A stretch of 64,000 nucleotides of DNA from contig MEKT01000101.1 in assembly GCA_001767435.1 (NCBI GenBank), positions 13,054 through 77,053 of the forward strand. The letters are read 5' to 3'. The position numbers and the translations under genes were made by a program. Under the pieces are notes generated by a model that worked only from the letters and a program-made list of their open reading frames with translations, was not told the DNA's origin and made no database searches. Of this stretch, positions 6,268 to 31,722 are shown in pieces (positions within the stretch are counted from its first letter, which is position 1; the number at the start of each line of letters is the position of its first letter). Origin of the DNA: Acidobacteria bacterium RIFCSPLOWO2_02_FULL_65_29 (GTDB lineage: Bacteria; Acidobacteriota; Vicinamibacteria; Vicinamibacterales; CAVVIG01).

Positions 6268-6307
6268 ACAGTCAACAGTCAGTCGACAGTCGACAGTCGA
6301 CAGTCAG
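6268..6307. repeat. heptamer tandem array (ACAGTCA / GTCGACA units)
   Basis: Read directly, between the dioxygenase start and the DoxX stop. Confidence 0.8.
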
Positions 6308-6353
6308 CGGAACTGTGACCTGTGAATTGTTGGCGATGTGTTCGTTCGCATCG

Positions 6354-6857
6354 TTACGCTGTCGCCGCCGGCGCCGGACGCCTGAGTGCCAGATTTGCCG
6401 CGCCACCGAGGCCACCGATTGCGAGCGCCGCCCACGAGATCGACGGCGTCCACAGAGGCGTGAGGCCGAGCACCGCGTCGAGCGAGTAGGCGCCGGGGCC
6501 GGTCAGCGCGAGCGCGGCTGCGCCGGCCGCGTACAAGAGCGGGAGCTCGATGCCGTTGCTCATGGCGAACAGCCCGTTTCGCCAGTGCACGCTCACGGCC
6601 GCCACGACCATCACGGCGAGCAGGATCGCGGGACCGACGGGGCCGAGCAGTCCAAACGTGATCAGCACGCCGCTTCCCACTTCTCCGACCGCTGCCGCGG
6701 CCGCGAACGCTCGGCCGGGCCTGAAGCCTAGTGTCTCGAACATTCCGCCCGCGCCGGCCAGCCCGTGGCCGCCGAACCACCCGAAGAGCTTCTGCGCGCC
6801 GTGGGCCGCCATAAGGGGACCCAGCACCAACCGAGCCAGCACCAATCCTGCATCCAT
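6354..6857 (-). CDS. DoxX family membrane protein
   Basis: The track ORF (266 aa) is trimmed to the ATG at 6857, which has AAGGAG 7 nt upstream. MDAGLVLARLVLGPLMAAHGAQKLFGWFGG is a typical DoxX N-terminus, and four hydrophobic segments are present. Confidence 0.85.
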   Translation of the reverse strand: MDAGLVLARLVLGPLMAAHGAQKLFGWFGGHGLAGAGGMFETLGFRPGRAFAAAAAVGEVGSGVLITFGLLGPVGPAILLAVMVVAAVSVHWRNGLFAMSNGIELPLLYAAGAAALALTGPGAYSLDAVLGLTPLWTPSISWAALAIGGLGGAANLALRRPAPAATA

Positions 6858-6908
6858 GGGCGTCGCTCCTTGATCGATCGGCCGCCGTCCGGCCGCACCG
6901 TAGGTATG

Positions 6909-6949
6909 ACTATAATTAGTATAGTTACTGTTTGTCAAGTAGCTACTTG
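6909..6949. promoter_or_regulatory. AT-rich divergent control region with two palindromes (candidate HxlR operator)
   Basis: ACTATA-ATTAG-TATAGT (6909-6925) and the perfect 14-bp palindrome CAAGTAGCTACTTG (6936-6949). This is the only AT-rich stretch between the divergent DoxX and HxlR genes. Confidence 0.4.
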
Positions 6950-6990
6950 CAATATCGATCTTCAACGCGTATCCTTGCTCGTAACGCCCA

Positions 6991-7371
6991 ATGCGAGATG
7001 CTCCCGAACCCGGGCCTGAGCTCTGTCCCCGGTTCCACAAGGCCAGCGAGCTCATCGGACGCCGGTGGACCGGCGCGATCATCTTCGTGCTGCTCCGCGC
7101 CCGGTGCCGGTTCGCCGCCTTGCGGGATGCGATCCCCGACATCACCGATCGCATGCTGTGCGACCGGCTTCAGGAGCTCGAGCACGAAGGCATCGTGGAA
7201 CGGACGGTCGTGCCGAAGACACCCGTGCGCGTGGAGTACGCGCTGACGAAGAAGGGCCGCGCCCTCGCGTCGGCCTTCGAGGCGATCTCCGACTGGGCGC
7301 ACAAGTGGGTCGTGCTGGACCAGCCGTCCGCCAAACACGAGAAGTCGGCGCGCGCCCGGCGCCGCGCCTGA
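6991..7371 (+). CDS. HxlR-family (MarR-like) transcriptional regulator
   Basis: CPRFHKASELIGRRWTGAIIFVLL, FAALRDAIPDITDRMLCDRLQELEHEGIVER, VEYALTKKG. Confidence 0.85.
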   Translation: MRDAPEPGPELCPRFHKASELIGRRWTGAIIFVLLRARCRFAALRDAIPDITDRMLCDRLQELEHEGIVERTVVPKTPVRVEYALTKKGRALASAFEAISDWAHKWVVLDQPSAKHEKSARARRRA

Positions 7372-7385
7372 AAGTCGAGGATTCC

Positions 7386-13701: not shown

Positions 13702-13753
13702 AGAACAGGTGCTAGGGTTCTAGGGCGCAAAGGGGCTAGCGTGCTGGGGCAAT

Positions 13754-15442: not shown

Positions 15443-15481
15443 GAAGTTAGAAGTTAGAAGTTAGAAGTTAGAAGTTAGAAG
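15443..15481. repeat. heptamer array, GAAGTTA x5.5
   Basis: Starts immediately after the amine-oxidase stop codon. Confidence 0.9.
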
Positions 15482-15493
15482 GACTGCGAGGGA

Positions 15494-15521
15494 GTGACGA
15501 GCCAGTAATTCAGCTCGTCAC
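15494..15521. terminator. perfect 9-bp hairpin between convergent genes (candidate bidirectional terminator)
   Basis: GTGACGAGC-(10 nt)-GCTCGTCAC. No clear U-tract. Confidence 0.45.
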
Positions 15522-15534
15522 CCCACCTTCTGTA

Positions 15535-15596
15535 GCCGAGTCCCGAGTCCCGAGTCCCGAGTCCCTAGTCCCCAGTCCCTAGTCTCTAGTCCCTAG
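15535..15596. repeat. heptamer array (TCCCGAG / TCCCTAG / TCCCCAG, about 8 units)
   Basis: Read directly. The last unit contains the stop codon of the minus-strand receptor gene. Confidence 0.9.
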
Positions 15597-18500
15597 TAAG
15601 TCACCCGAAGCGTGATCTGCACGGACCGCATGTTGTTCGCCTGATTCCTGAGCTGGCCGAAACCCGAGTTCCCGAGCGCGGAGCTCGCGGGCGCGGCCCA
15701 CTGGACGATATTCAACGGATTCAGTAACTCGAAGCGGATCGACGCCGACGCTCGGCCCGGCAGTCCGACCTGTTTCGACGCCGACATACTGAACGCGTTG
15801 CGGAACGGCGACAGCACGCCGGGCAGCGTGCGCGGGGCGTTGCCGAAGCGGTTTCTCGCCACCGCCTGGAAGGCGGCGAGGTTGTAGTACCGGTTGTCCG
15901 TCGTGTTCTCCGTGATGCGCTCCGTGATATCGCCCGGAGTGAGGATGTCCTGACCGTCGACGAGGTTGGGCCGCACCGAACCGCCCATCAGGAATTGTCC
16001 ACCGGTGATGTTCTGGCTGACGCCCATCGGGAAGCCGCTCTGGAACTGCATCACGGCCGTGAGCGACCAGCCACCGAAGACCGCGTTGCCGACCCCGCCC
16101 TCGGACAGGAACCGCTTGCCGTCACCGAACGGGAGGAGGAGGGTCGGCGAAATCGTGACCTTGTGCGGCGAGTCGAGCAGGCTTCGACCGTACTCCGAGT
16201 CCGGATCGTAGTACTCGGACCAGGGCACCAGCACGTAACTGTTCTGGACGCCCGGGGCGCTCGAATAGTAGTTGCCCTGGCCGACCTGATTGTCCATCAG
16301 CCGACTGTAGGTGTAGCTGAAGTTCACGCCCCACAGGTTGTCTGTTCGCTTCCGCCCCTGAAAGATCAGGGCGTGATACTGCGAGCGGGCGCCGGTGGCA
16401 TCCGCCCACATCACATTGCCGAACTGCGGGAAGGGCCGCAGGAGCTGGCCGCGCTCGATGGTGGCTCGACTCGCGAACTGGCCGGCCTGGGGGATGCCGA
16501 AGAACGGGTTCGGGACCTGCGCCCGCGTGTAGCCGTCCGGCTGGCTCTGATATTTCGGATCGAGCTGGTTGATGTTGATGTCGGCCTGCCAGTCCTGGTC
16601 CGTCCCAGTCAATCCGGTATATCCAATTCCTAGCATCAGGCCGCCACCAAACTCACGCTGGAGATCGACCGAGTATTGCTGCACCTTCGGCGTCCCCTTG
16701 TTGGGAAGCCGGATGTTCGTGTCCGCGCCGACGTTGGTGAGCAATCCCAGCGAATCGCCGGTCGGCTGGACGAACCGTCCGGGGAAGGGATCGCTCAGTG
16801 ACGTGATGGGGACCGGGTTGGTCCCGGACGACTGTTGAAGCTGGGTCGTCGCCGAGTAGCCGTACTGCGACCAGCCCGTCGTGCCGCCCGCCCCATAATT
16901 CCAAGGCGCGACGTACAGGCCCCAGCCGCCGCGCAGCACGGTCTTCTCATTGAAACTGAACACCCCGCCGACGCGCGGCGACACTTGGACGTCGCGCGGC
17001 CCGCCCTGCTGTTCGGGCGCGCCGTTCTGGCCCGCGTACACGAGACCGCCGTTGATCTGCCGCCGCTGCCCGGTGATTGGATCGATGACGTTGACCAGGC
17101 TGTTCAGCGGACTGGCCGTGTCCAACGCAAAGTCGGTCGTGATGCGGTTTTCCCGCTCGCGCAGGTTGGTCTCGTGCTCGAGCCGCACGCCGTAGTTGAG
17201 CGTCAGCCGGCTGTTCACGCGCCAGTCGTCCTGCATGAACCCGGCGCTGTAGTTGATGTACCCGTCGAGGTCCGCGGAAATCGGGATGCTGCCGCTCGAC
17301 GGATAGCCGAGCAGCAGATCCGCCAGGGCGTTGCCCGTGAAGCGGCCGTCAAACGCGTACGTGCCCGTCGACGTGCCAAAGCTGGACGACCTGACGCCCA
17401 GGATGCGGTAGTCGCCGCCGTACTTCATGCTGTGGGTGCCAATCAGCTTGCTCAGCGCGGCGTTGAACCCGTACTGATAGTAGACGTTGTCCGACCGGGC
17501 GCTCCATCCCGTGCCCCGGTAACTGCCGCTTCCGGTGTATGACGTCGTGGGGAAACGATTCGAGTCCTTGAACTGGCTCGTGAAGCCAGGATTGCTCGGC
17601 CACAACGTGGCTGCATCGAACGGCACCGGCAGCTTGTTGCCGTCGGGGAATTCGTTCCAGCCACCTCGCAGCGCGAGAACGGTGGAAGAATTCATGACCC
17701 AGGTGTTGTTGACGACGATGGTGTGGTCGGCGCGCTCCAGCAGGAATTGGCTGCCGACGAACTTGTTCACCGGATTGTAGTTCGCGCTGTTCTCGGCAGT
17801 CACCTGCCGGAGATAGAACACGCTCATGGACGCCGCGTTGTTGAAGTTGTGATTGACCTTCGTCGTGAACTGGTACGCGTTGCTCGGCAGGAGGTCGGTT
17901 CGGCTGAAGTTCTGCGTGCCATCGTCGACGTCGCGGTCGGGCTCCGGCATGTAGCTCGCGATCGCGCTACCGGTGAAATTGATCCGGTTGGCCGGAATCA
18001 CGTTGCCTGGGAAACACCCCGCGCCCCCCGTCGTTGCGTTGCATGGGAGGCCGGACAGGGGATCCCTGATGTAGTACGGCCGGCCGCTGCGGGTGAGCGC
18101 CGAGAAATCGCCGCGCCGCGTGGCCATCGACGGTACCGTGAAGGCGCTCGCCTGCGGCTGATGGTTGATGTACTTCTCGCCGGCGAACCAGAAGAACGTC
18201 TTGTTCCGCAGAATCGGGCCGCCGATGCCGCCGCCGCCGTTTCGCCAGTACTCGGGCCTGAAGGTTTCGTTATTGAGCCGCGGAATCAGCAACTGATCCT
18301 GCAGGGTCTGAGGACGAAACACCGTGTAACCCGAACCTTCGAATCTATTGGCGCCCGCCTTCGCGGCCATGTTCATCACGCCGCCACCGGTGCGGCCCAT
18401 TTCGGCGTCGTAGGTGTGGATCTGGACCCTGGCGTCTTCGAGCGCCTCCATGCTCGGGTTGACCGACGACCGGTTCTGCATGTCGGTCGTCGGAAACCCG

Positions 18501-19335: not shown

Positions 19336-19339
19336 ATTT

Positions 19340-21477: not shown

Positions 21478-23682
21478 ATGGCGCGCACACTGTCTAGACA
21501 TCTTCTAAAGCCGATGTCCATGCGAACAAGGCAAGTGTTCGGCTTGCTGGTTCTGCTCGGCGGGGGAATCGCATGGCTCACGCCGCGTGCGGCGGGACAG
21601 GCGGGAAGCGCTGCCTTTCCCAGCACGGCCGCCGGCGACTGGACGCACTACACGGCCGACGCGCGGGGCAGCAAGTACTCGCCGCTCGATCAGATCAACG
21701 CGGCGAATTTCAACAAGCTCGAGGTCGCGTGGCGCTTCAAGACCGACAACCTCGGCACGCGTCCCGAGTACAAGCTCGAAGGCACGCCGCTCGCGATCAA
21801 GGGTGTGATCTACACGACGGCCGGCACACGGCGCTCGGTCGTGGCGCTCGACGCGAAGACCGGCGAGCTCATGTGGGCGTACAGCCTGCGCGAAGGCACC
21901 CGCGCCGCGATCGCGCCACGGCAGCTTTCGGGCCGGGGCGTCGCGTACTGGACCGACGGCCGGGGCGACGACCGCGTGCTGTTTGTCACGACCGGCTATC
22001 GCCTCGTCGCGTTGAACGCGAAGACCGGCCAACCCGTCGCCTCGTTCGGCAGGAACGGCATTGTGGACTTGAAGGAAGGCGCGGTCGTCGGCACGGGCCG
22101 CCAGATCGATCTCGAGACCGGTGAGATCGGCGTGCACTCGACGCCGCTGGTGGTCAAGGACACCGTCATCGTCGGATCGTCGATGAAGGAGGGCATGACG
22201 GTCGTCACGCACGACAACACGAAGGGCCTGGTGCGCGCGTTCGACGCGCGGACGGGCCGGAGGATCTGGCAGTTCAACACGATTCCGCGGCCCGGCGAAT
22301 TCGGCAACGAGACGTGGGAAGAGAACTCGTGGGCGTACAACGGGAACACCGGCGTCTGGACGCAGATGACCGCGGATGAAGACGCCGGCCTGGTGTACCT
22401 GCCGGTCGAGACGCCGACCTCGGACTTCTACGGCGGGCACCGGCCGGGCAACAACCTCTTTGCCGAGAGCCTTGTGGCCGTCGACCTGAAGACGGGCGTG
22501 CGCAAATGGCACTTCCAGTTCGTCCATCATCCGATCTGGAACTTCGACAACTCATCGGCGCCGCTCCTGGCCGATATCAATGTGAACGGCAAGGCGATCA
22601 AGGCCGTCGCCTCGCCGAGCAAGCTCGGGTGGCTCTATGTCTTCGACCGCATCACGGGCCAGCCCGTGTGGCCGATCGAGGAGCGGCCCGTGCCGCAGTC
22701 CGACGTGCCGGGAGAGAAGACGTCGCCGACGCAGCCCCACCCGACCAAGCCGCCGGCGTACGCGCGCAACTCGCTTCTGCCCGAGTACCTGATCGACTTC
22801 ACACCGGAGATGCGCGGCCAAGCGCTCGAGTTGCTGAAGCGGTATCGCTGGGAGCAATCGCCGTTTGGCCCGGCGGTCCTTGGCAGCGTCAACGGACGCC
22901 TCGGCGGCATCGGCGCGGGCACGGCCACCAACTGGCCCGGCGCCTCCTACGATCCGGAAACGCACACCGTGTATGCGCAAGCCGGCAACAACGGGTTCTC
23001 GGCGCGGTCTCTGGCGCCGATGCCGGCGGGGTTCTCCGACATCCGGTACGGGTCGGGCATGGAAGGGCGGCCGTTCCGCGAAGCACTCGGCCCCGGATTT
23101 GGCACGGCCGCCGAATCTCCGCTCGCCGGCGGCAGAGGCCGCGGAGCTGCCGCCGAACCGGCGCCTGCGCCCGCGGCGGCTCCGGCGGGCGGCGCGCCTC
23201 CAGCTGCCGCCGCAGGCGGAGGCGGCGGTCTGAACATCCAGGGCCTGCCGATCGTGAAGCCGCCGTACGGCGTGCTGTCGGCGATCAACCTCGATCGAGG
23301 CGAGTTGAGCTGGCAGGTCCCGCACGGCGATACGCCCGACGCGATTCGCAACCACCCGTTGCTGCGCGGGATGAACATCGGGAAAACCGGCCAGAGCGGC
23401 AGCGTCGGCTTGATGGTCACCAAGACGCTCGTAATCCTCGGCGACGGCCAGGTCACCTCGCCGCCGGGTCGGCCGCGCGGCGCGATGCTCCGTGCGTACG
23501 ACAAGAAGACGGGCCAACAGGTCGGTGAAGTCTGGATGCCGGCGCCGCAAAGCGGGTCGCCGATGACCTATGCGGTCGACGGCCGGCAGTACATCATCAT
23601 CGCCGTGAGCGGCGGCGCGTTTTCGGGTGAGTACATCGCGTTTGCGCTGCCACAAAACGAAGGGCGGCCGAGTCAGCAGTAG
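21478..23682 (+). CDS. soluble PQQ-dependent dehydrogenase, glucose/quinate/shikimate-like family, paralog 1
   Basis: KYSPLDQINAANFNKLEVAWRFKT, repeated xTGExxW propeller motifs, FVHHPIWNFD, and a signal peptide. An alternative start at 21520 (MRTRQVFGLLVLL) is possible. Confidence 0.9.
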   Translation: MARTLSRHLLKPMSMRTRQVFGLLVLLGGGIAWLTPRAAGQAGSAAFPSTAAGDWTHYTADARGSKYSPLDQINAANFNKLEVAWRFKTDNLGTRPEYKLEGTPLAIKGVIYTTAGTRRSVVALDAKTGELMWAYSLREGTRAAIAPRQLSGRGVAYWTDGRGDDRVLFVTTGYRLVALNAKTGQPVASFGRNGIVDLKEGAVVGTGRQIDLETGEIGVHSTPLVVKDTVIVGSSMKEGMTVVTHDNTKGLVRAFDARTGRRIWQFNTIPRPGEFGNETWEENSWAYNGNTGVWTQMTADEDAGLVYLPVETPTSDFYGGHRPGNNLFAESLVAVDLKTGVRKWHFQFVHHPIWNFDNSSAPLLADINVNGKAIKAVASPSKLGWLYVFDRITGQPVWPIEERPVPQSDVPGEKTSPTQPHPTKPPAYARNSLLPEYLIDFTPEMRGQALELLKRYRWEQSPFGPAVLGSVNGRLGGIGAGTATNWPGASYDPETHTVYAQAGNNGFSARSLAPMPAGFSDIRYGSGMEGRPFREALGPGFGTAAESPLAGGRGRGAAAEPAPAPAAAPAGGAPPAAAAGGGGGLNIQGLPIVKPPYGVLSAINLDRGELSWQVPHGDTPDAIRNHPLLRGMNIGKTGQSGSVGLMVTKTLVILGDGQVTSPPGRPRGAMLRAYDKKTGQQVGEVWMPAPQSGSPMTYAVDGRQYIIIAVSGGAFSGEYIAFALPQNEGRPSQQ
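21492..21540 (+). repeat. ~50-nt junction motif, copy i (GTCTAGACATCTTCTAAAGCCGATGTCCATGCGAACAAGGCAAGTGTTC)
   Basis: Shares about 80% identity by eye with 47530-47578 (minus strand) and 38696-43 (that is, 38696-38743, plus strand). Contains the hairpin GACATC-n10-GATGTC. Confidence 0.6.
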
Positions 23683-23684
23683 CA

Positions 23685-23755
23685 TAGTCGTGAGTCGATA
23701 GAATAGTCGTGAGTCGATAGTCGATAGTCGATGGTCGAGAATCGTGAGTCGAAAG
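23685..23755. repeat. heptamer array (TCGATAG / TCGTGAG)
   Basis: Begins 3 nt after the stop of dehydrogenase 1. Confidence 0.8.
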
Positions 23756-23786
23756 AGGTCATCTGGACGCATTGAGGAGTAGGACG

Positions 23787-25946
23787 ATGACGATGAAGAG
23801 AGCTATTCACAGTACGCTTCTGCTGGCGTTTCTCGTCGGGGCGGCCATGCTGATCATGCCGCGGGTGTCGGGCCAGACGCCCTCCGGGTTCCCGAGCACC
23901 AAGAACGGCGAGTGGTGGCACTACACGGCCGACAACACCGGGTCGCGCTTCATGCCGCTCGATCAGATCAACGGATCCAACTTCAACCAGCTCGAGGTCG
24001 CGTGGCGCTTCAAGACCGACAGCCTCGGGCCGTTTCCGGAATACAAACTCGAAGGCACGCCGCTGATGGTCAAGGGCACGATCTACACGACCGGCGGCAC
24101 GAGACGCTCGGTGGTCGCGCTCGACGCGAAAACGGGCGAGCTCCAATGGGTCTACAGTCTGCGTGAGGGCCGCCGCGCCGCGGTGGCGCCCAGGCAGCTC
24201 TCAGGCCGCGGCGTGTCGTACTGGACCGACGGCAAGGGTGACGATCGCGTCGTGTTCGTCACGACGGGCTTCCGGCTCGTCGAGCTCAACGCCCGGACCG
24301 GCCAGCCGGTACAGTCGTTCGGCAAAGCCGGAATCCTGGATCTCAAGGACGGCGTGCAGGTCGGCAACAACCAGCAGATCAACCTGGAAACGGGCGAGAT
24401 CGGCGTGCACTCGACGCCGACGATCGTGCGAGACATCGTGATTATCGGCTCGGCATTCCGCGAGGGCGCGACCGTGTCGACGCACAACAACACGAAGGGG
24501 CTCGTGCGCGGGTTCGACGTCCGAACGGGCAAGAGGCTCTGGACGTTCAACACCATTCCGCGGCCGGGGGAGTTCGGCGCCGAGACGTGGGAAGAAAACT
24601 CGTGGGCGTTCAACGGCAACGTCGGCGTGTGGACGCAGATCAGCGCCGACGCCGACGCCGGACTGGCGTACCTCCCCGTCGAGACGCCGACCTCCGACTT
24701 CTACGGCGGCCACCGGCCAGGCAACAACCTGTTCGCCGAAAGCCTGGTCGCCGTGGACATCCGCACCGGCCAGCGCAAGTGGCACTACCAGCTCGTGCAC
24801 CATCCGCTCTGGAATTTCGACAACTGCTGCGCGTCGCTGCTGGCGGACATCACCGTGGACGGCAAGGCCATCAAGGCCGTGGCGCAGCCGAGCAAGATCG
24901 GTTGGCTGTACGTGTTCGATCGGATCACGGGTCAGCCGGTGTGGCCGATTGAAGAGCGGCCGGTCCCGCAGTCCGACGTGCCCGGAGAGAAGACCTCGCC
25001 GACGCAGCCGCACGTGACGAAGCCGCCGCCGTACGCGCGCACGCACATGCGGGTACCGGACGATCTGATTGACTTCACGCCGCAGCTCCGCCAGCGGGCG
25101 CTCGAGGTCATCAAGCGCTATCGATACGAGCCGTCGCCGTTCATGCCGCCGGCGCTCGGCACCGTCGCCGGCCCGCGGTTCGGGGCGATCAACGCGTCGA
25201 CGGCCACCAACTGGCCCGGCTCCGCCTACGATCCGGAGACGCATACGGTGTTCGCGCAGGCCGGGAACACGGGAGCGTCGGCACGCTCGCTCGTCGCGCC
25301 GCCCACGGGCTTCACCGACATCCGCTACGTCTCGGGGATGGCCGGGCGTCCCTTCCGGGAGGTCTTCGGACCGGGGGATTGCTGCGCGGCAGATGCGGGA
25401 CGCCGGACGGCCGGGGATCGACAGGCCGAGCAGCCGAACGCACCGGCGGCGCCAGCGGCCCCGGTGGCCGATGCCGCTACTGTCGCCGCGGCCAACGCCG
25501 GGCTCAGCGTCGAGGGTCTCCCGATCACGAAGCCGCCCTACGGCGTGCTCTCGGCGATCAACCTCGATCGCGGCGAGCTCGTCTGGCAGGTGCCGCACGG
25601 CGACACGCCCGACAACATCCGCAACCACCCGCTGCTGCGCGGCATGAACATTCCCAAGACGGGCCAGGCCGGCACCTCGGGCGTCGGCTTGATGGTGACC
25701 CGCACGCTCGTCGTCATGGGCGATCCGCAGGTGACGACACCACCGGGACGTCCGCGCGGCGCGATGCTGCGGGCCTACGACAAGAAGACAGGCCAGGAAG
25801 TCGGCGCGCAACTGCTGCCGGCTCCGCAAAGCGGCTCGCCGATGACCTACATGGTCGACGGCCGTCAGTTCATCATCGTCGCCGTCGCGGGCGGCGCCGT
25901 GACAGGCGAGTACATCGCCTATGCGCTGCCACAGACTAGTCGTTAG
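23787..25946 (+). CDS. soluble PQQ-dependent dehydrogenase, paralog 2
   Basis: Start at the ATG at 23787, which has GAGGAG 7 nt upstream. MTMKRAIHSTLLLAFLVGAAMLIMPRVSGQ, and collinear with paralogs 1 and 3. Unique adjacent Cys-Cys (LWNFDNCCASLL, 24825-24830). Confidence 0.9.
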   Translation: MTMKRAIHSTLLLAFLVGAAMLIMPRVSGQTPSGFPSTKNGEWWHYTADNTGSRFMPLDQINGSNFNQLEVAWRFKTDSLGPFPEYKLEGTPLMVKGTIYTTGGTRRSVVALDAKTGELQWVYSLREGRRAAVAPRQLSGRGVSYWTDGKGDDRVVFVTTGFRLVELNARTGQPVQSFGKAGILDLKDGVQVGNNQQINLETGEIGVHSTPTIVRDIVIIGSAFREGATVSTHNNTKGLVRGFDVRTGKRLWTFNTIPRPGEFGAETWEENSWAFNGNVGVWTQISADADAGLAYLPVETPTSDFYGGHRPGNNLFAESLVAVDIRTGQRKWHYQLVHHPLWNFDNCCASLLADITVDGKAIKAVAQPSKIGWLYVFDRITGQPVWPIEERPVPQSDVPGEKTSPTQPHVTKPPPYARTHMRVPDDLIDFTPQLRQRALEVIKRYRYEPSPFMPPALGTVAGPRFGAINASTATNWPGSAYDPETHTVFAQAGNTGASARSLVAPPTGFTDIRYVSGMAGRPFREVFGPGDCCAADAGRRTAGDRQAEQPNAPAAPAAPVADAATVAAANAGLSVEGLPITKPPYGVLSAINLDRGELVWQVPHGDTPDNIRNHPLLRGMNIPKTGQAGTSGVGLMVTRTLVVMGDPQVTTPPGRPRGAMLRAYDKKTGQEVGAQLLPAPQSGSPMTYMVDGRQFIIVAVAGGAVTGEYIAYALPQTSR

Positions 25947-25967
25947 TCGTTAGTCGTTAGTCGTTAG
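25937..25967 (+). repeat. heptamer array, TAGTCGT x4
   Basis: The first unit encodes the last codons of dehydrogenase 2 (ACT AGT CGT). The second unit supplies its TAG stop. Confidence 0.9.
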
Positions 25968-25976
25968 AAGACCTGT

Positions 25977-26078
25977 CAGGGCAAAGAGCACAGGGCCGAG
26001 GGTTGAGGGAAGGGTCGAGGGACCGCCCTTCGCCCTTTGCCCTTTGCCCTTTGCCCTTTGCCGTCTGCCCTTGCCCCC
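25977..26078 (+). repeat. G-tract arm (six GGG runs) followed by a TTGCCCT heptamer array (about 8 units)
   Basis: GGGTTGAGGGAAGGGTCGAGGG (26000-26021) is directly followed by CCGCCCT TCGCCCT TTGCCCT x3 and further units. The two halves are partly complementary. Confidence 0.7.
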
Positions 26079-26162
26079 ACCCCCACATTGGCGCGATAAT
26101 CTTTCGCCGCACTTTTCGTGGAGCCTTTCCTCGTCACTGATCGGATCGGATGGGAGTGAGAT

Positions 26163-28355
26163 ATGAAGCGTAAAGGGTTCGCCAGTCTCGCGTTGCTCGT
26201 CGCACTTGGGGCGGCGGCCGTAGTCGTTTCGCCGCGGCTTTCGGGCCAGGCGACCGGTCAGCCGAGCACCAGGAACGGCGAGTGGCCGATGTACACGGCC
26301 GACTTGCGAGGCAGCAAATATTCGCCGCTCGATCAGATCAACGCGACGAATTTCAGCAAGCTGGAAGTCGCGTGGCGGTTCAAGACCGACAGCCTCGGCC
26401 CGCGCCCCGAGACCAAACTCGAAGGAACGCCGCTGATGGCCAAGGGCATCATCTATACGACGGCCGGCACGCGCCGGGCGGTGGTGGCGCTCGACGGGAA
26501 GACCGGCGAGATGAAGTGGATGCACAGCCAGGACGAAGGCGAGCGCGCCACGCGCTGGGCGCCGCGCCAGTTGTCGGGCCGCGGACTCTCCTACTGGACG
26601 GACGGCCGGGGCGACGAGCGGATCTTCTACGTGACGACCGGCTACCGGCTCGTGTCTCTCAACGCGAGGACGGGACAGCCGATCGCCTCGTTCGGCACGC
26701 GCGGCGTCGTCGACCTCAAGGTCGGCGTGGTGATCGGGAAAGACTCGCAAATCGATCTCGAGCGAGGCGAAATCGGCCTGCACTCGACACCGACCGTGGT
26801 CAACGACACGATCATCGTCGGGTCCTCGATGTTCGAGGGGCTCGGCTACCGCTACAGCACGAACTCCAAGGGCCTGGTTCGCGCGTTCGACGTGAAGACC
26901 GGCAAGCAGCTCTGGCGCTTCAACACGATTCCGATGCCTGGCGAGGTCGGCAACGAGACCTGGGAGAATGGCTCCTGGGAGTGGAGCGGCAACGTCGGCG
27001 TGTGGACGCAAATCACCGTCGATCCCGAGGCGAATCTGGTGTACCTGCCGGTGGAAACCCCGACCATCGACGAGTACGGCGGCAACCGGCCCGGCAACAA
27101 CCTCTTCGCCGAGAGCCTCGTCGCGGTCGATCTGAGAAATGGACAGCGCAAGTGGCACTTCCAGTTCGTGCACCATCCGCTCTGGGACCACGACCTGTCG
27201 TCGGCGGCGCTGCTCATCGACGCCACGATCGACGGCAAGCCGCGCAAGCTCGTGTCGGTCCCAACCAAGCAGGGCTGGCTCTATACGTTCGACCGGATCA
27301 CCGGCCAGCCGATCTGGCCGATGCCGGAAACACCGGTCCCGCAGTCGGATATCCCGAACGAGAAGACGGCGGCGACGCAGCCGATTCCCTCCAAGCCGCC
27401 GCCGTACTCCCGCACGTTTGTCGGCCTCGACGATCTGATCGACTTCACGCCGGCGCTCCGCGCGCAGGCGCTCGAGAACCTCAAGAAGTATCGCTGGGAG
27501 CAGGTGCCCTTTGTGCCTCCCGTGGCGCCGGGATCGAAGTACCTGGGAGCGGTCAACATCGCCAATACGGGCGGCGGCATCAACTGGCCGGGCGCATCGT
27601 TCGATCCGGAAACGGCCACCTTCTACGGTCAGGCCAGCAACTCGTCGGTCACCACGGCCAGCTTCAGCCAGGAGGAGTTCGACCAAATCCGTGTCGAGAA
27701 CCAGACCAGGCGGCTGCCTCGCTGGGAGGCCGAACCGAACTACGGACTCGGGCGCGGCCGCGGCGCGGGCGGCGGTGGCGGTCGTGGGGCGGAGCCCGGG
27801 GGTCGGGGCGTGCCAGGGGCGCCAGGGGCGCCCGGCGCCGCACCGGCGGCCGGCGGGTTTGGCGGAGGCGGCGGCAGAGGCGGCTTGACTGTGGGCCTCG
27901 ACGGCCTGTCGATCGTGAAGCCGCCCTACGGCGTGCTCTCGGCGATCGATCTCAACACGGGCACGCTGAAATTCCAGGTGCCGCACGGCGACACACCGGA
28001 TGCGGTCCGCAACCACCCGCTGCTTCGCAGCATGAACATCCCGAAGACGGGGCAGGGCGGCAGCGTGGGCCTCATGGTCACCAAGACGCTCGTCGTCGTG
28101 GGCGATCCACAGGTCACCGCGCCGCCCGGACGCGCGCGCGGCGCGATGCTGCGGGCCTACAACAAGCAGACCGGCGAGCAGGTCGGCGAAGTGTTGATGC
28201 CCGCGCAGCAAAGCGGTTCGCCGATGACGTATTCGATCGACGGGCGGCAGTACATCATCGTCGCGGTCAGCGGCGGCAACTACACGGGCGAGTACCTGGC
28301 GTTCGCGCTGCCGCAGAGCGAGATTCGTCCGACGACGGGGCAGGGACAGCAGTAG
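26163..28355 (+). CDS. soluble PQQ-dependent dehydrogenase, paralog 3
   Basis: MKRKGFASLALLVALGAAAVVVSPRLSGQ, KYSPLDQINATNFSKLEVAWRFKT, FVHHPLWDHD. Confidence 0.9.
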   Translation: MKRKGFASLALLVALGAAAVVVSPRLSGQATGQPSTRNGEWPMYTADLRGSKYSPLDQINATNFSKLEVAWRFKTDSLGPRPETKLEGTPLMAKGIIYTTAGTRRAVVALDGKTGEMKWMHSQDEGERATRWAPRQLSGRGLSYWTDGRGDERIFYVTTGYRLVSLNARTGQPIASFGTRGVVDLKVGVVIGKDSQIDLERGEIGLHSTPTVVNDTIIVGSSMFEGLGYRYSTNSKGLVRAFDVKTGKQLWRFNTIPMPGEVGNETWENGSWEWSGNVGVWTQITVDPEANLVYLPVETPTIDEYGGNRPGNNLFAESLVAVDLRNGQRKWHFQFVHHPLWDHDLSSAALLIDATIDGKPRKLVSVPTKQGWLYTFDRITGQPIWPMPETPVPQSDIPNEKTAATQPIPSKPPPYSRTFVGLDDLIDFTPALRAQALENLKKYRWEQVPFVPPVAPGSKYLGAVNIANTGGGINWPGASFDPETATFYGQASNSSVTTASFSQEEFDQIRVENQTRRLPRWEAEPNYGLGRGRGAGGGGGRGAEPGGRGVPGAPGAPGAAPAAGGFGGGGGRGGLTVGLDGLSIVKPPYGVLSAIDLNTGTLKFQVPHGDTPDAVRNHPLLRSMNIPKTGQGGSVGLMVTKTLVVVGDPQVTAPPGRARGAMLRAYNKQTGEQVGEVLMPAQQSGSPMTYSIDGRQYIIVAVSGGNYTGEYLAFALPQSEIRPTTGQGQQ

Positions 28356-28387
28356 TCGTTAGTCGTTAGTCGTTAGTCGTTAGTCGA
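28353..28387 (+). repeat. heptamer array, TAGTCGT x5
   Basis: The first three nucleotides form the TAG stop of dehydrogenase 3. Confidence 0.9.
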
Positions 28388-28389
28388 GA

Positions 28390-28420
28390 GGGCCCGCACC
28401 GCCGCGGGCCCTTTCTTTGT
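28390..28420 (+). terminator. Rho-independent terminator
   Basis: GGGCCCGC-ACCGCC-GCGGGCCC followed by TTTCTTTGT. Confidence 0.75.
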
Positions 28421-28499
28421 CCGCGGCGATCCTTGTTAAGATATAGAAGCGCTGTAGAAGCGCCGGTCCAATTTTTTGCCCTGACGTGGGCGAGGTCAC

Positions 28500-28936: not shown

Positions 28937-29000
28937 GAGGATTTGAGGATTTGGGGATTTGAGGATTTGAGGATTTGAGGATTTGAGGATTTGAGAATCT
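28937..29000. repeat. octamer array, GAGGATTT x8
   Basis: Fills the whole gap between the cytochrome c stop (28934) and the stop of the convergent gene (28999-29001). Confidence 0.9.
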
Positions 29001-30237
29001 ACGCGGCGCGCAGCTTGTGCGCGAGACGGTGCAGGAACAGCCCCACATCGGTCACGATGCCGATCGTTTGCGACGACCCGCGGTCGGCCAGCTTGGTGAC
29101 GACCGCGGGGTTGATGTCCACGCACACCATCTTCACCCACGACGGGAGCATGTTCCCAACCCCGATGCCGTGCAGCATGGTCGACAGCGACAGCACCAGC
29201 TTGACGTCGTCGAGGACAGCGGCATAGCGGTCCTGCGCGGCGCGCAGATCCATGATCGTGTCGGGCAACGGTCCATCGTCGCGGATTGAGCCCGCGAGCA
29301 CGTACTCAACCTCGTGGCGGATGCACTCGTACATCACGCCCGACTGCAGCACGCCTTGCTGTACCGCCTGCCGGAGACCACCCACGCGACAGATGGTGTT
29401 GATCGCGCGCATGTGGTGACGATGGCCGCCCTCGATGGCCATCCCCGTATCGAGATCCACGCCCAGGGAGGTCCCAAACAGCGCCTGTTCCACGTCGTGC
29501 ACGGCCAGGGCGTTGCCGGCGAGGAGGACGTCGACGTAGCCTTCGCGAATCAACTCCTGAAAGTACGGCGAGCCGCCCGTGTGGACGACCACCGGTCCGG
29601 CCACGACTGCGATGCGCCCGCCCTCGGCCTTGACGTCGCGCATCATCGCCGCAATGCGCGACACGCCAACCTCGACCCGCCGTTCGGACGAGATCTCGTT
29701 CGTCATGAAGGCGAACCCAAGCCGATCGCGGTCGCGGAACTCCGGCATCACGCGGATGCCGGCCACGCCGCACACCACCGCGTCGCCCGTACGGACGTCG
29801 CGCAGCTTGCGGCACAGTGCCTTCCCCCTGGCGACGACGACGACCGCGTCCATGCGCTGGTGCTGCACGTCGATCCACTTGCCCTTGAGCCGCACCAGCG
29901 TGCGGTGATTGGTGGTCGAGTAGAAATCGTCGGGCACGCAGCCGTCGCGCTCCGCGTCCCTGAGCAAGGCATCGTGCTGATCAGCCAGGCGGCAGCCGAG
30001 CGCGACGAGCTCTTCGAGTACTTCGCCGAGCGCTTGTTCGGTAGGAGCCGAAATCCGCATCGAAATCGCCGACGGCTCGTCGTTGCTTCGCCCGATCTTG
30101 AACTCGAGGACTTCGAACGACGCGTGGCGCCGGACAACGGTGTCGAACACGACGTTGAGGATTTGCGAGTCGATCAGGTGGCCCTCGGCCTCGACGACCT
30201 CGGAAAACGCCTGCGATGTCGAACGGGGAGACGCCAT
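28999..30237 (-). CDS. LOR/SDH-domain, TIGR00300-like protein (ornithine cyclodeaminase-type family)
   Basis: N-terminal GHLIDSQILNVVFDTVV...FEVLEFKIG, and central VVAGPVVVHTGG, LLAGNALAVHD, GGHRHHMRAIN. The family was recognised from memory and not searched. Confidence 0.65.
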   Translation of the reverse strand: MASPRSTSQAFSEVVEAEGHLIDSQILNVVFDTVVRRHASFEVLEFKIGRSNDEPSAISMRISAPTEQALGEVLEELVALGCRLADQHDALLRDAERDGCVPDDFYSTTNHRTLVRLKGKWIDVQHQRMDAVVVVARGKALCRKLRDVRTGDAVVCGVAGIRVMPEFRDRDRLGFAFMTNEISSERRVEVGVSRIAAMMRDVKAEGGRIAVVAGPVVVHTGGSPYFQELIREGYVDVLLAGNALAVHDVEQALFGTSLGVDLDTGMAIEGGHRHHMRAINTICRVGGLRQAVQQGVLQSGVMYECIRHEVEYVLAGSIRDDGPLPDTIMDLRAAQDRYAAVLDDVKLVLSLSTMLHGIGVGNMLPSWVKMVCVDINPAVVTKLADRGSSQTIGIVTDVGLFLHRLAHKLRAA

Positions 30238-30238
30238 C

Positions 30239-31501
30239 TCAGGCGAAAATCGGCAATGACAGCGGGGCCTGCACGTGGAAGTCGCTCTGGGCGACCTCGG
30301 CCAGCGCGCGATCGAGGACCGATTCGGAGCACTCTTCGAGCGTCGTCACGAACGGCAGCCGATCCTTCCGGAACTTCGGCAGCTGGAGCACGCCCTCGAT
30401 GTTGATCCCGTAGCGCGCATAGGCGGCGGTCACCTGCGCCAGGATGCCCGGCTTGTCGTTGACCGTGAAGCGGACGTAATGCGGCGCGACGAAGTCGCCG
30501 CTCACGATGTGAAATGGCGTCGGCTCGCTCGGGGGCGCCGCCTCGCCCGCCGCACGCCGAACCGACAGCACGTCGGACACGACGGCCACGGCCGTGGGCG
30601 ACCCCCCGGCGCCGTGCCCCGAGAAGGATGTCTCGCCGCCGAAGACCCCGCGCACCGTCACGAGGTTCTGGCTGCCCGCGTTCTGTCCGAAACCCGACGA
30701 GAGCGGCACGAGCGCTGGACGCACCGCCGCAAACACCGCGCCGCTGTCTTCGACTGATGCGCGCGCGATCTGCCGGATCGTACACCCCAGCTGACGCGCG
30801 TACTCGAAATCGACGGGCTCGATCGGACGAATAGACCGCGTCGCGATGTCGGTCACCCGCACCGGGCGGCGCAGGCCGACGGCGGCGATGATCGCCAGCT
30901 TGGCGGCGGCGTCCGCGCCGTCGAGGTCTTCGGTCGGATCGGCTTCGGCATAGCCCGCTTTCTGCGCCTCGGCCAGCGCGTCGCCGAACGAGACCGCGTC
31001 CGCCTGCATACGGCTCAAGATGTAGTTGCACGTGCCGTTCAGAATGCCGCGCACCTCGACCAGCCGGTCCCCGGCCAGGCCCTCCTGCAGGGCGCGCAGC
31101 ACCGGAATGCCGCCGGCCACCGACGCCTCGAACCGCACCTCGCGTCCCTGCGCGCGCGCCAGGTCGAGGAGCTCCGTGCCGTAGTGCGCCATCAGCTGCT
31201 TGTTGGCGGTCACCACCGACTTGCCCGCGAGCAGGGCGCTCCGCACCCATTCGTACGCCGGATGAAGTCCGCCGACGAGCTCGACGACGATGTCGGCGTC
31301 CGACGCAAGAATGTCTTCCACCACGTCGGTCCAGCGGACCGACGCGGGCACCCAGTCGACGCGCTTGGCGTCGACGTTGCGGTTGAAGATGTGCGTCAGC
31401 TGTACCTGTGGCACTTCGCCGCTGCACAGAATGCGCGCGACCGCCTGGCCGACAGTGCCGAACCCAAGCAGTGCCACGCGGGAGCCGGATGGCTTGGCCA
31501 T
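30239..31501 (-). CDS. hom: homoserine dehydrogenase
   Basis: RVALLGFGTVGQAVARIL, VVTANKQLMA, FEASVAGGIPV, ILNGTCNYILSRM, and a C-terminal ACT-like region. Confidence 0.9.
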   Translation of the reverse strand: MAKPSGSRVALLGFGTVGQAVARILCSGEVPQVQLTHIFNRNVDAKRVDWVPASVRWTDVVEDILASDADIVVELVGGLHPAYEWVRSALLAGKSVVTANKQLMAHYGTELLDLARAQGREVRFEASVAGGIPVLRALQEGLAGDRLVEVRGILNGTCNYILSRMQADAVSFGDALAEAQKAGYAEADPTEDLDGADAAAKLAIIAAVGLRRPVRVTDIATRSIRPIEPVDFEYARQLGCTIRQIARASVEDSGAVFAAVRPALVPLSSGFGQNAGSQNLVTVRGVFGGETSFSGHGAGGSPTAVAVVSDVLSVRRAAGEAAPPSEPTPFHIVSGDFVAPHYVRFTVNDKPGILAQVTAAYARYGINIEGVLQLPKFRKDRLPFVTTLEECSESVLDRALAEVAQSDFHVQAPLSLPIFA

Positions 31502-31503
31502 AA

Positions 31504-31582
31504 GAGTCGTTAGTCGCTAGTCGTTAGTCGCTAGTCGCTGGTCGCTGGTCGCGAGACGCTCGTCGTTGGTCGTTAGTCGTTC
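31504..31582. repeat. heptamer array (TAGTCGT / TAGTCGC / TGGTCGC, about 11 units)
   Basis: Starts 2 nt from the hom start codon. Same unit as the arrays at 25937 and 28353. Confidence 0.85.
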
Positions 31583-31656
31583 CCGCGGCAGCGGGCGGTC
31601 GCACTCGTCGACGCGGCAGCGACTATATCAGACGCCGCAGCCTTAGGACCCGTCCT

Positions 31657-31722
31657 CTGCCCTTTGCCCTTCTGCCCTTTGCCCCTTGCCCCTCTGCCCT
31701 TTGCCCCTCTGCCCTTTGCGCT
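31657..31722. repeat. heptamer/octamer array (TTGCCCT / TCTGCCCT)
   Basis: Same unit family as 26023-26078. Generates the spurious PLPLAPLPFAPLPFA N-terminal extension on the truA track ORF. Confidence 0.85.

Follow-up and report, generated by a model that had tools for sequence, protein, structure and literature searches.

In cyanobacteria, the STRR sequences reportedly described by Mazel et al. in 1990 have the units CCCCAGT, TTGGTCA and CAACAGT. Long-unit simple sequence repeats (LSSRs, units of 5–11 nt; Mrazek et al. 2007), heptamers foremost, are summarised in two papers as typical of large high-GC genomes, for example those of Xanthomonas, Burkholderia and Actinobacteria (PMC4679880, PMC4692102, citing Mrazek 2007). 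Rehm et al. (2015) found the G-rich heptamers GGGAATC in Xanthomonas and GGGGA(C/T)T in Nostoc PCC 7120, intergenic and genome-wide, with the G-rich strand sense in the roughly 50 bp that follow a stop codon, and antisense upstream of ORFs (PMC4692102). These heptamers have a preference for about four units, are depleted between divergent genes and occur in inverted pairs; their length and sequence differ among close relatives, and they have no link to any functional class of genes (PMC4692102). TAACTGA direct repeats are known from marine Beggiatoaceae, cyanobacteria and Bacteroidetes (MacGregor 2015; PMC4679880).

The window analysed here is a 64,000-nt stretch of a Vicinamibacterales MAG (5.5 Mb, 65% GC, 97% complete) from a soil or aquifer acidobacterium. 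Between its positions 6250 and 31736 an array is present at 11 of approximately 14 gene junctions (Table 1), while the second half of the window is nearly array-free though it has many gaps of 70–230 nt. Every array listed in the original prediction was recovered by Tandem Repeats Finder (TRF), to within 1–3 nt of the given coordinates, and TRF also found two that were missing from that list, at 13708-13749 and 25999-26022. The same arrays are found in the independent JGI, ENA and Logan assemblies, and because they are identical there, an assembly artefact is excluded. The arrays had been described as lying exactly in intergenic gaps. Independent gene calls on the population contigs do place all of them outside ORFs or at the very edge of one, but "exactly" is too strong, as four of them overlap an adjacent gene's stop codon or provide it (15593-95, 20346-48, 25944-46 and 28353-55).

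Table 1. Repeat arrays and associated hairpins in the window
Position	Strand	Array or element	Location	Method	Remarks
6267-6306		AACAGTC x6 (AACAGTC/GTCGACA heptamers)	DoxX stop to LigB start, both genes minus strand	TRF	
~6313-6340 (element 6267..6345)		Degenerate inverted partner, ACTGTGA-type		Fold	Predicted hairpin with AACAGTC array
13708-13749	+	Weak GGTGCTAG-like octamers	Fills 52-nt DAO/amine-oxidase gap, from 6 nt past DAO stop	TRF, 64% matches	Sense strand G-rich
15443-15481	+	GAAGTTA x5.6, 100% matches	Begins at base right after amine-oxidase stop	TRF	G>C on sense strand; two units (exactly 14 nt) shorter in contig L083
15493-15528		Hairpin, 12-bp stem	Between GAAGTTA and CCGAGTC arrays		
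15536-15597	-	CCGAGTC x8.9 (CCGAGTC/CCCTAGT; minus strand GACTCGG/ACTAGGG)	Provides TAG stop of convergent outer-membrane barrel gene	TRF	G-rich on sense strand of that gene
19338-19371		TTGGGTGC octamer x4.1	3 nt past TonB stop (minus strand)	TRF	C-rich on TonB sense strand, polarity-rule exception; unchanged among strains; contig L080 terminates directly beside it
20292-20348 (TRF core 20306-25)		ATTGGATA/ATCGGGTA octamers, degenerate	PPK2 stop (overlapped) to TonB start, minus strand	TRF	Second polarity-rule exception; unchanged among strains
21265-21332		TCTAGCC/TCCAGCC heptamers	Divergent PPK2/PQQ1 gap	TRF	Internal 5-nt indel in one strain
23680-23752	+	TAGTCGT/TAGTCGA	First bases are TAG stop of PQQ dehydrogenase 1	TRF	Two 5-nt indels in one strain
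25937-25967	+	TAGTCGT x4.4, 100% matches	Encodes last three codons and stop of PQQ dehydrogenase 2	TRF	Identical in 3 strain contigs (plus window)
25975-26078	+	Hairpin element: 5' arm 25975-26022 degenerate, G-rich AGGGCAA-type; 3' arm 26023-26078 (TRF 26025-26076) TTGCCCT x7.6	5' of PQQ3	TRF, fold	
28353-28387 (TRF 28353-28386)	+	TAGTCGT x4.9, 100% matches	First TAG is PQQ3 stop	TRF	
28389-28424		GC-rich hairpin and T-run	Just 3' of TAGTCGT array at 28353		
28937-29000 (TRF 28937-28995)	+	GAGGATTT x7.4-8	Fills convergent cytochrome c/LOR-SDH gap, from 2 nt past cytochrome c TGA	TRF	Identical in 6 strain contigs (plus window)
31504-31582 (TRF 31505-31581)		TAGTCGT/TAGTCGC/TGGTCGC	2 nt 5' of hom start codon, minus strand	TRF	One assembly's scaffold interrupted by Ns within array
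31654-31719	+	TTGCCCT-type	17 nt 5' of truA start	TRF	Single T/C SNP among strains; relatives have small ORF at same place

The intergenic DNA of the whole genome yields 508 TRF rows of period 7 and 342 of period 8. Three order-3 Markov simulations of intergenic sequence yield 0, 0 and 0 rows of period 7 and 1, 0 and 0 of period 8. A chance origin is excluded. There are approximately 691 heptamer and 403 octamer arrays in the genome, against a single array with period 5 and 12 with period 6; they occur at a density of about 200 per Mb, make up about 50 kb in total, and are present in approximately 24% of gaps of at least 40 nt. Arrays of period 7 and 8 are about 80% intergenic, and those of periods 3, 6, 12 and 15 are 84–93% coding. 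A unit length indivisible by three, together with the stop codon found in most units, would explain why arrays last only in untranslated spacers.

The arrays belong to a known class of bacterial repeats. They share with LSSRs, as summarised in PMC4679880 and PMC4692102, the predominance of heptamers, a large, high-GC genome in a host that is not host-adapted, the exclusion from ORFs of units that are not multiples of three, and slippage as the proposed origin. Compared with the LSSRs of those summaries, which do not list the phylum of the present host, the acidobacterial arrays stand out by a very high density and by peaking again at 8 nt. The supposition that they are unusual in a GC-rich non-cyanobacterium is not supported, since both papers summarise long-unit repeats as typical of large high-GC genomes. 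Every trait listed above for the Xanthomonas and Nostoc heptamers is seen again. Unlike those one-family repeats, however, the acidobacterium has dozens of unit families, with octamers equally prominent, and most of its units have no G-tract and no capacity to form quadruplexes, and yet obey the same rules.

Just 85 unit classes, out of 1172 possible ones, account for the 691 heptamer arrays, and the unit families are connected by point mutation. The octamer GAGGATTT is found at 137 loci with unrelated flanks, and TAGTCGT makes up 61 arrays. The statement that families differ from site to site is true locally, but genome-wide a few dozen families recur. So few classes, so widely dispersed, require some copying or strong sequence selection beyond independent births by slippage. 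The copy number does not decay but has its mode at 4–5 units, which could reflect a preferred functional length of around 30 nt.

We propose, with a probability of roughly 55%, that the arrays are slippage-driven long-unit simple sequence repeats of the LSSR/STRR class, with transcription polarity acting as a filter. Replication slippage would add or remove one 7- or 8-nt unit per step. MutS and MutL are both present in the genome, and loops of 7–8 nt should evade their repair; the near-absence of units of 1–6 nt may be explained by this escape. Arrays would grow within a spacer up to a constraint, mostly the end of the upstream ORF, and an array reaching that ORF would often end up supplying its stop codon.

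Slippage was followed in population contigs with 99.4–99.99% identity over reliably aligned stretches, and the slipped-strand length variation that had been suggested was indeed found. The two arrays that vary by whole units are both perfect: TAGTCGT at 28353 has 4, 5, 9 or 10 copies, and GAAGTTA at 15443 varies as given in Table 1. Interrupted arrays are stable between strains, and the majority of arrays in the window are unchanged among 3–6 strain contigs. Over 21.2 kb with 14 SNPs, five of the six indels lie in array spacers, the sixth being a hexamer tandem duplication. Unit-step polymorphism within one population would also be a property of contingency loci, where changes in copy number toggle neighbouring genes by classical phase variation. 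We regard this as extremely unlikely, because the polymorphic arrays follow stop codons, where length alters neither reading frame nor promoter spacing, because the neighbours belong to everyday metabolism and housekeeping (PQQ dehydrogenases, amine oxidase, hom, truA, ribosomal proteins), and because around a thousand loci far exceeds any known contingency set.

Orthologous spacers have turned over among relatives. The hom leader of 17 Vicinamibacterales relatives carries different arrays or none, and the cytochrome c/LOR-SDH gap of relative G153 has no array. Array densities among the sampled relatives lie between 0 and 325 per Mb, with other units in use. The amplification of families is species-specific: GAGGATTTx3 has 203 hits in the studied genome, but among 150 genomes of the order only three contain it, with 1–6 hits. 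Most of the arrays are probably filler that is dispensable and turns over fast, and would affect the length or structure of UTRs only incidentally.

The arrays are anchored to stop codons. Of the distances from array to gene 3' end, 39% fall between -20 and +10 nt, and in roomy gaps 59 arrays adjoin the stop and 26 the start. Where an array abuts a stop codon, its sense strand has G>C in 200 cases against 27. This rule is independent of stop-codon content (66 vs 4 for arrays with stops on both strands, 29 vs 10 with stops on neither), and is seen in solo arrays (134 vs 22) as well as in partnered ones (66 vs 5). The orientation tracks gene direction and not GC skew, 3' flanks without arrays are slightly C>G, and arrays are depleted between divergent genes. 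C-rich arrays adjacent to starts are the 3' arms of hairpins (55 vs 12), solo ones being unbiased. The polarity rule at stop codons is new for this genome, the same rule having been reported for Xanthomonas and Nostoc heptamers by Rehm et al. (2015). The TAACTGA repeats (PMC4679880) are also short intergenic heptamer arrays, of 2–6 or more copies, associated with ribosomal-protein operons and assembly breaks, but they are a single family lying mostly just 5' of starts, whereas the acidobacterial arrays are stop-anchored and of many families; no TAACTGA array was found in the genome.

Under the slippage proposal, a filter linked to transcription would operate past the point of ribosome release and allow only the G-rich, C-poor strand in mRNA. 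A C-rich arm would be allowed only if it forms the 3' side of a hairpin and can pair immediately with the G-rich arm. Rho is the likeliest agent; it is present twice in the genome, and unstructured, untranslated C-rich RNA would be a rut-like loading site for it. Alternatively, expansion may be promoted by R-loops with G-rich non-template strands.

The strict polarity and stop-codon anchoring would also fit functional RNA-level elements in UTRs: terminators, 3'-end stabilisers or Rho insulators resembling REP/BIME, with SD-like GAGGAUUU arrays holding or recapturing ribosomes for translational coupling. The length mode and the variants mirrored between hairpin arms (see below) point the same way. 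So do the presence of GAGGATTT on the sense strand in 59 against 14 co-directional gaps, the few arrays that run right up to a start codon (for ribosomal proteins, that of L36 and that of L28, for example), and the use by a related genus of a different SD-like octamer, GAGGAAGT, likewise sense after stops. This genome shows no enrichment of canonical terminators 3' of genes, so that another 3'-end device could serve. Despite this we consider such a role unlikely. The spacers of other genera (the G153 gap, the hom leaders) keep neither position nor unit, three quarters or so of the gaps of at least 40 nt and nearly all of the window's second half do without an array, and co-existing strains differ in copy number with no visible compensation. 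Rfam gives no match for the arrays, searches of the genome turned up neither CsrA nor Hfq, two evident candidates for binding, and the 16S 3' end (anti-SD) is absent from the MAG.

An inverted partner, forming a hairpin, accompanies 388 of the 1094 arrays (approximately 35%), against 19 with shuffled units. Variant units are common to both arms in 350 cases against about 29 expected, which fits selection for pairing. Hairpin-forming inverted pairs, hundreds of copies, and a position at gene 3' ends or between cistrons, often a few nucleotides from the stop, are shared with the REP/BIME and REPIN elements of Enterobacteria and Pseudomonas. It could be argued that the arrays are mobile but non-autonomous, of a REP/REPIN- or MITE-like kind, and moved by a dedicated nuclease or transposase, which would explain one unit at more than 100 loci in few, dispersed families. 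Length is fixed in the AAGAATT (31–32 nt) and CACGAAGA (24 nt) elements, whose edges are conserved in part. Arrays of the same family lie within 3 kb of each other twice as often as expected (67 vs 36), and they bracket a GxxExxY PD-(D/E)XK gene and three of eight four-helix-bundle genes. Such bracketing is rare, however (26 gene-array combinations, around 20 distinct genes), and expected by chance for abundant families. The arrays have an internal tandem periodicity and vary in length by unit steps, which is slippage and not transposition. Most families lack conserved boundaries, and the flanks of the large families are uninformative, with neither terminal inverted repeats nor target duplications. 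No IS200/IS605-type Y1 transposase gene (Y1_Tnp, as in the RAYT of REPINs) was found in the 97%-complete genome, while control genomes gave hits. Mobility therefore seems improbable.

The core AGTC/GACT recurs in 16 of the 50 heptamer families, where 3.7 would be expected (z = 6.9), which hints at a sequence-specific partner. It is shared with the Nostoc unit GGGGACT (PMC4692102) and with the classic STRR1 and STRR3 units. The arrays might then act as DNA, as G-quadruplexes, cruciforms or tandem sites recognised through an AGTC-type core by a nucleoid or regulatory protein; about 190 arrays carry G3+ tracts, and the preference for four units agrees with the case for G4 made by Rehm et al. We find this very doubtful. 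Most families (GAGGATTT, TAGTCGT, GAAGTTA, AAGAATT and AACTGTC among them) cannot form G4, yet have the same 4–5-unit mode and polarity, and symmetric binding to DNA would not predict a polarity that follows transcription. The AGTC enrichment may instead reflect common descent of families related by point mutation.

The likeness to STRR sequences that had been proposed is correct as to structure, namely tandem 7-nt units, each dispersed over many intergenic loci. The arrays are not STRR in the strict sense, as the host is not a cyanobacterium; other units dominate here, and octamers occur too. CCCCAGT and CAACAGT, which we take to be the STRR1 and STRR3 units, are present literally at 15570-76 and 6273-79 as had been noted, and are minor families of 4 and 12 arrays genome-wide. 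Relative G153 has CCCCAGT as well, and a Luteitalea MAG has TTGGTCA.

Each array listed in the original prediction was recovered by Tandem Repeats Finder, with offsets of 1–3 nt, together with two arrays beyond that list, and the observation extends to the whole genome. Gene calls on population contigs (contigs of other assemblies that encode exactly identical proteins) together with Pfam give the gene order LigB, DoxX, HxlR, pirin, a TonB-dependent-type barrel, DAO, amine oxidase, a second barrel, TonB, PPK2, three tandem PQQ dehydrogenases (PQQ1 to PQQ3), cytochrome c, LOR/SDH, homoserine dehydrogenase (hom) and truA. Between positions 6250 and 31736 at least one array is found in 11 of the approximately 14 junctions, so that most junctions are indeed occupied. 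The arrays had been placed exactly in the gaps. Their location is intergenic, but four of them supply or overlap the stop codon of the neighbouring gene. Two array hairpins, formed by inverted partner arrays, and two stop–array–terminator arrangements are also present, and Rfam gave no matches in 5000–33000. The three PQQ paralogues, with pairwise nucleotide identities of about 72–76%, each have a TAGTCG(T/A) array directly 3′ (21520–28387). From 32500 to 64000 there are almost no 7- or 8-nt arrays despite many gaps of 70–230 nt, so that arrays are unevenly spread along the chromosome.

Coordinates of arrays and associated features, as window positions unless a contig of the source genome is named
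Location	Feature	Polarity rule	Population contigs
1566-1606, 48734-48762	11-mer family TCTGACCCCAC and its reverse complement		
6267-6345	Array hairpin		
6273-6279	CAACAGT		
13708-13749	Array beyond the original list	Obeyed	
15443	Perfect array, GAAGTTA x5.6	Obeyed	Two units fewer in one contig
15443-15597	Stop–array–terminator		
15536	Array	Obeyed	
15570-15576	CCCCAGT		
15593-15595	Stop codon supplied or overlapped		
19338	Interrupted array	Exception	Unchanged
20292	Interrupted array	Exception	Unchanged
20346-20348	Stop codon supplied or overlapped		
21183	PPK2 5′ end		26-nt deletion in one contig
21293	Array spacer		Indel
23679, 23698, 23771	Array spacers		Indels
23680	Array	Obeyed	
23783	PQQ2		In-frame 6-nt tandem indel (GACGAT)
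25937	Perfect array, TAGTCGT x4.4	Obeyed	
25944-25946	Stop codon supplied or overlapped		
25975-26078	Array hairpin, interrupted	Obeyed	Unchanged
25999-26022	Array beyond the original list		
27812	PQQ3		In-frame 9-nt tandem indel (GCCAGGGGC)
28353	Perfect array, TAGTCGT x4.9	Obeyed	Indel in array spacer
28353-28355	Stop codon supplied or overlapped		
28353-28424	Stop–array–terminator		
28937	Interrupted array	Obeyed	Unchanged
31504	Interrupted array		Unchanged
31654	Interrupted array		Unchanged
C125:1197-1583, C221:4951-5385, C23:229-465, C232:13443-13859	Bracketed four-helix-bundle and GxxExxY genes (source genome)		

Tandem Repeats Finder was run on the whole assembly (5.51 Mb, 239 contigs, 65.4% GC), and identified 691 non-redundant arrays of period 7 and 403 of period 8. 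Other periods gave 1 array (period 5), 12 (period 6) and 157 (period 9). About 80% of the period-7 and period-8 arrays are intergenic, with mean coding fractions of 0.20 and 0.18, against 0.84–0.93 for periods 3, 6, 12 and 15, the split being based on a crude in-house gene caller. Order-3 Markov simulations of intergenic DNA gave 0 and 0–1 rows where 508 and 342 are found for periods 7 and 8, and the genome-wide check proposed with the original prediction thus puts intergenic arrays far above expectation. In total the arrays make up about 50 kb, and 675 of the 2775 gaps of at least 40 nt contain them.

The largest families are GAGGATTT (137 loci), TAGTCGT (61), CGTGTCTT (55), AAGAATT (49), TAGTCGA and AACTGTC (47 each), GAAGTTA (45), ACCCGATT (37) and TTGCCCT (34). 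Only 85 of the 1172 possible heptamer classes are in use, the top heptamer families having 45–61 loci each. Apart from AAGAATT and CACGAAGA, the main families have unrelated flanks, carrying about 0 bits of information, and a larger mobile element as the carrier of the arrays was rejected on this ground. The most frequent copy number is 4–5 units, also for units that have no G-tracts; for TAGTCGT, runs of 3, 4, 5 and 6 units number 24, 34, 33 and 9. Arrays of the same family occur at twice the expected frequency within 3 kb, with no excess farther out. An inverted partner array lies at most 120 nt away for 388 of the 1094 arrays (35%), compared to 19 when units are shuffled. Of 50 heptamer families, 16 share an AGTC/GACT core (3.7 expected), which may reflect descent since the families are related by point mutation. 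Mirrored variants are in excess between hairpin arms, in a count biased by alignment. An 11-mer family, with 10 intergenic arrays genome-wide, provides a third unit length beside 7 and 8.

The units CCCCAGT, TTGGTCA and CAACAGT are those of cyanobacterial STRR elements. Both CCCCAGT and CAACAGT are literally present in the window at the sites predicted. Genome-wide they are minor families, with 4 and 12 arrays respectively, and TTGGTCA has none. The STRR-like reading is supported in that tandem heptamers are present with one unit dispersed over many loci (691 arrays in 85 classes). The hosts differ, STRR being hosted by (heterocystous) cyanobacteria, whereas here the closest matches at the hom locus are Vicinamibacterales/Vicinamibacteria (Acidobacteriota) MAGs, at 80–88% protein identity; identity to Terriglobales is about 55%. 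Descriptions of heptamer arrays (STRR, LSSR) go back to 1990, and no function or mechanism is known to have gained acceptance.

Such arrays had been thought unusual in a GC-rich non-cyanobacterium. This was not borne out: as Mrazek et al. (2007) are summarised in PMC4679880, heptamers are the most frequent long-unit SSR, large high-GC genomes are the typical hosts, and polymerase slippage is the proposed cause. The LSSRs of that summary share three features with the arrays here, namely head-to-tail units of 5–11 nt longer than chance, units that are not multiples of 3 outside ORFs with multiples of 3 tolerated inside, and close strains that differ by slippage steps. GGGGACT is a heptamer unit in Nostoc (PMC4692102). 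Rehm et al. (2015; PMC4692102) described two intergenic repeats, GGGAATC (Xanthomonas) and GGGGA(C/T)T (Nostoc), whose G-rich strand is sense up to 50 bp after a stop or antisense upstream of an ORF. Few were in divergent gaps, inverted pairs occurred and four units were preferred; the arrays are transcribed, vary between close relatives and have no known function. The class is thus already known from Rehm et al. (2015) and MacGregor (2015) (PMC4692102, PMC4679880). In the literature covered by our search there was no link of such repeats to Acidobacteria, and the string CCCCAGT was absent from the papers covered.

The arrays here are anchored to gene 3′ ends: 39% of array-to-3′-end distances fall within −20 to +10 nt, and where a co-directional gap leaves 60 nt or more free, the array abuts the stop in 59 cases and the start in 26. 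Divergent gaps are depleted, with 0.61 arrays per kb against about 1.0 elsewhere. A clear strand rule accompanies this position. Among arrays within 10 nt of the stop in co-directional gaps, the sense strand has G>C in 200, against 27. The rule holds for solo arrays, which have no inverted partner (134 against 22), and for partnered arrays, the arms of hairpins (66 against 5). Arrays that adjoin the downstream start and are C-rich on the sense strand are hairpin 3′ arms (55 against 12), and solo arrays beside a downstream start have no bias (27 against 36). Array-free 3′ flanks are slightly C>G, and therefore the rule is no general compositional trend. Nor is replication strand the cause: GAGGATTT is oriented with the gene whichever sign the local GC skew has. 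Stop-adjacent units often carry a sense-strand stop codon (102 against 19), which is largely a consequence of how ORFs end; arrays supply the stop codons of many genes, perhaps a few hundred. Three-frame stop codons were rejected as the cause of the orientation, because the rule persists with stop content controlled (66 against 4 with stops on both unit strands, 29 against 10 with stops on neither).

Sense-G after stops, divergent depletion and 4–5 units are thus shared with the heptamers of Rehm et al. (2015). Those have a G3–4 tract in each unit, so that four units can form a quadruplex, but here GGG/CCC families account for only about 190 of the 1094 arrays, and GAGGATTT, TAGTCGT, GAAGTTA, AAGAATT and AACTGTC contain no GGG/CCC. 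What is added is a new phylum, many families, octamers, and rules that are kept by non-quadruplex units. Since post-stop position, G-rich mRNA strand and 4–5 units hold without quadruplex ability, the quadruplex explanation is weakened.

The population contigs are 99.4–99.99% identical to the window over reliably aligned stretches, with one 1.4-kb fragment at 97.9% (gapped BLAST alignment). They bear out the suggestion of slipped-strand length variation: in the window and six contigs the TAGTCGT array at 28353 has 4, 5, 5, 5, 5, 9 and 10 copies between identical flanks, and the GAAGTTA array also varies. Compared over 21.2 kb, one contig differs from the window by 14 SNPs and 6 indels, all of the indels being at repeats. 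Five are in array spacers, and the remaining one duplicates a hexamer in tandem at the PQQ2 5′ end. The interrupted arrays marked in the table are unchanged among the strain contigs. The deletion at the PPK2 5′ end is repeat-mediated, and shortens the gene call to 265 aa. Contigs also break at or inside arrays (L087 ends at 15467 and L080 at 19375), and L057 and L050 have an N-run inside the array at 31504. Arrays break short-read assemblies of this lineage, which may account in part for the division of this MAG into 239 contigs.

Between genera the arrays are not conserved. The hom upstream spacer in 17 relatives contains GCTGACA, TTGGTCA/CGACCAA, GCGACTG, CTGAATT or GGGCAGG-type arrays, or none. 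In the closest genome sampled (about 83% nucleotide identity) the cytochrome c/LOR-SDH gap is free of arrays, and others lie close by. Array density in sampled family members ranges from 0 to 325 per Mb with differing units, and the Terriglobales loci examined have no arrays. GAGGATTTx3 has 203 matches in the source genome; among 150 others of the order, only 3 have any, with 1–6 matches. The arrays could serve as strain markers for this abundant, uncultured soil and aquifer lineage.

We hypothesise, with a probability of about 0.55, that the arrays are long-unit SSRs driven by slippage, that they survive where spacers go untranslated, and that a filter linked to transcription sets their orientation. 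Slippage itself is demonstrated by the unit-step alleles in pure arrays, and such steps would lengthen and shorten the arrays. Loops of 7–8 nt may escape mismatch repair. MutS prefers small loops, which would fit the near-absence of arrays with 1–6-nt units, and both MutS and MutL are present. The favoured candidate for the filter is Rho, which would load on a C-rich unstructured repeat, resembling a rut site, just behind the released ribosome. A penalty on such sites would explain why an array there is either G-rich only or has a C-rich arm that pairs at once with a preceding G-rich arm. Rho is favoured because there are two rho genes and no enrichment of canonical terminators after genes: a hairpin with a T-run follows 6.7% of arrays and 6.2% of all stops, and is found at 6.5% of mid-gene positions (whole genome). 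The stop–array–terminator is therefore no general architecture; termination probably depends on Rho for the most part, or else relies on hairpins that lack a T-run. The alternative candidate to Rho is R-loop-promoted expansion of G-rich non-template DNA. That the rules are kept by non-quadruplex units points to the transcription–translation boundary as what organises the arrays, by way of Rho loading or R-loops.

With Vicinamibacterales added to Xanthomonas and Nostoc (PMC4692102), three phyla now show stop-anchored sense-G polarity, which here is independent of quadruplex potential and stop content. It could thus reflect an undescribed general transcription-coupled process, creating and orienting 7–8-nt arrays where ribosomes leave the mRNA. 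We regard this as unlikely. R-loop-driven expansion of G-rich non-template DNA would be one candidate, and another would be a dedicated sequence-specific factor with AGTC-type units as its target, by which arrays are copied from one locus to the next. If true, heptamer arrays would report on Rho and R-loop biology and not be random junk.

The slippage model leaves unexplained why unit families with unrelated flanks are so few, as well as the mode at 4–5 units, the AGTC/GACT core (possibly descent) and the mirrored hairpin-arm variants (alignment-biased). These four features keep alive the readings that the arrays are functional RNA elements or mobile elements, against which stand the results of searches for the machinery. 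CsrA was not found in the genome, which rejects a CsrA sponge for the GGA-bearing GAGGAUUU arrays, nor was Hfq. REP/REPIN elements with RAYT are imperfect palindromes, often in inverted extragenic pairs, with a cognate, repeat-flanked gene for an IS200/IS605-type Y1 transposase. Such a system is excluded as such: there is no PF01797 (Y1 transposase) match in this 97%-complete genome, the same search finding the family in six control genomes. As to the palindrome, an inverted partner is found for 35% of arrays, and only AAGAATT (31–32 nt) and CACGAAGA (24 nt) have a fixed length; these two look more REP-like than the other families. A cognate gene bracketed by each family was also rejected, the 26 gene–array combinations (about 20 distinct genes) being mostly ordinary, such as QueD, L16 and thioesterase. 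Phase-variation contingency SSRs belong to switchable surface or restriction genes, where they occupy either the 5′ coding part or the promoter spacer; here the arrays are anchored after stops and their neighbours are metabolic and housekeeping genes, and this explanation is very unlikely.

The source genome is of value mainly for its clean polarity rule and for testing how heptamer arrays originate, in an unusually rich natural data set of about 1,100 arrays, dozens of families and co-occurring strains in public metagenomes.

Arrays of a single family stand on either side of three of eight four-helix-bundle genes (23S_rRNA_IVP / Avd-like), and the same holds for one of three GxxExxY PD-(D/E)XK genes. 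Such genes, small and possibly selfish, may use array-rich spacers as insertion sites or move together with them.

At the hom start (31499–31520), array units …AACGACTCTTATG immediately precede the start codon, with no recognisable Shine-Dalgarno motif. This echoes MacGregor's remark that spacers with repeats seldom contain canonical RBSs (PMC4679880); the 16S 3′ end, with the anti-SD site, is absent from the MAG assembly. Upstream of hom, conceptual translation gives a small acidic ORF ending in ...EEAGYGYGV* in at least eight Vicinamibacterales relatives, and the DNA motif for this C-terminus is visible in about 15 of 17 hom leaders (31583–31728, minus strand, compared with the hom-locus relatives L001–L035). 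In most relatives the ORF is followed by a conserved GCGTGGTACGCT motif resembling an extended −10 element. The source genome has only a relic of the ORF, GGCTGCGGCGTCTGA (31627–31641), preceded by an in-frame TAA, and the TTGCCCT array sits where the relatives have the body of the small ORF.
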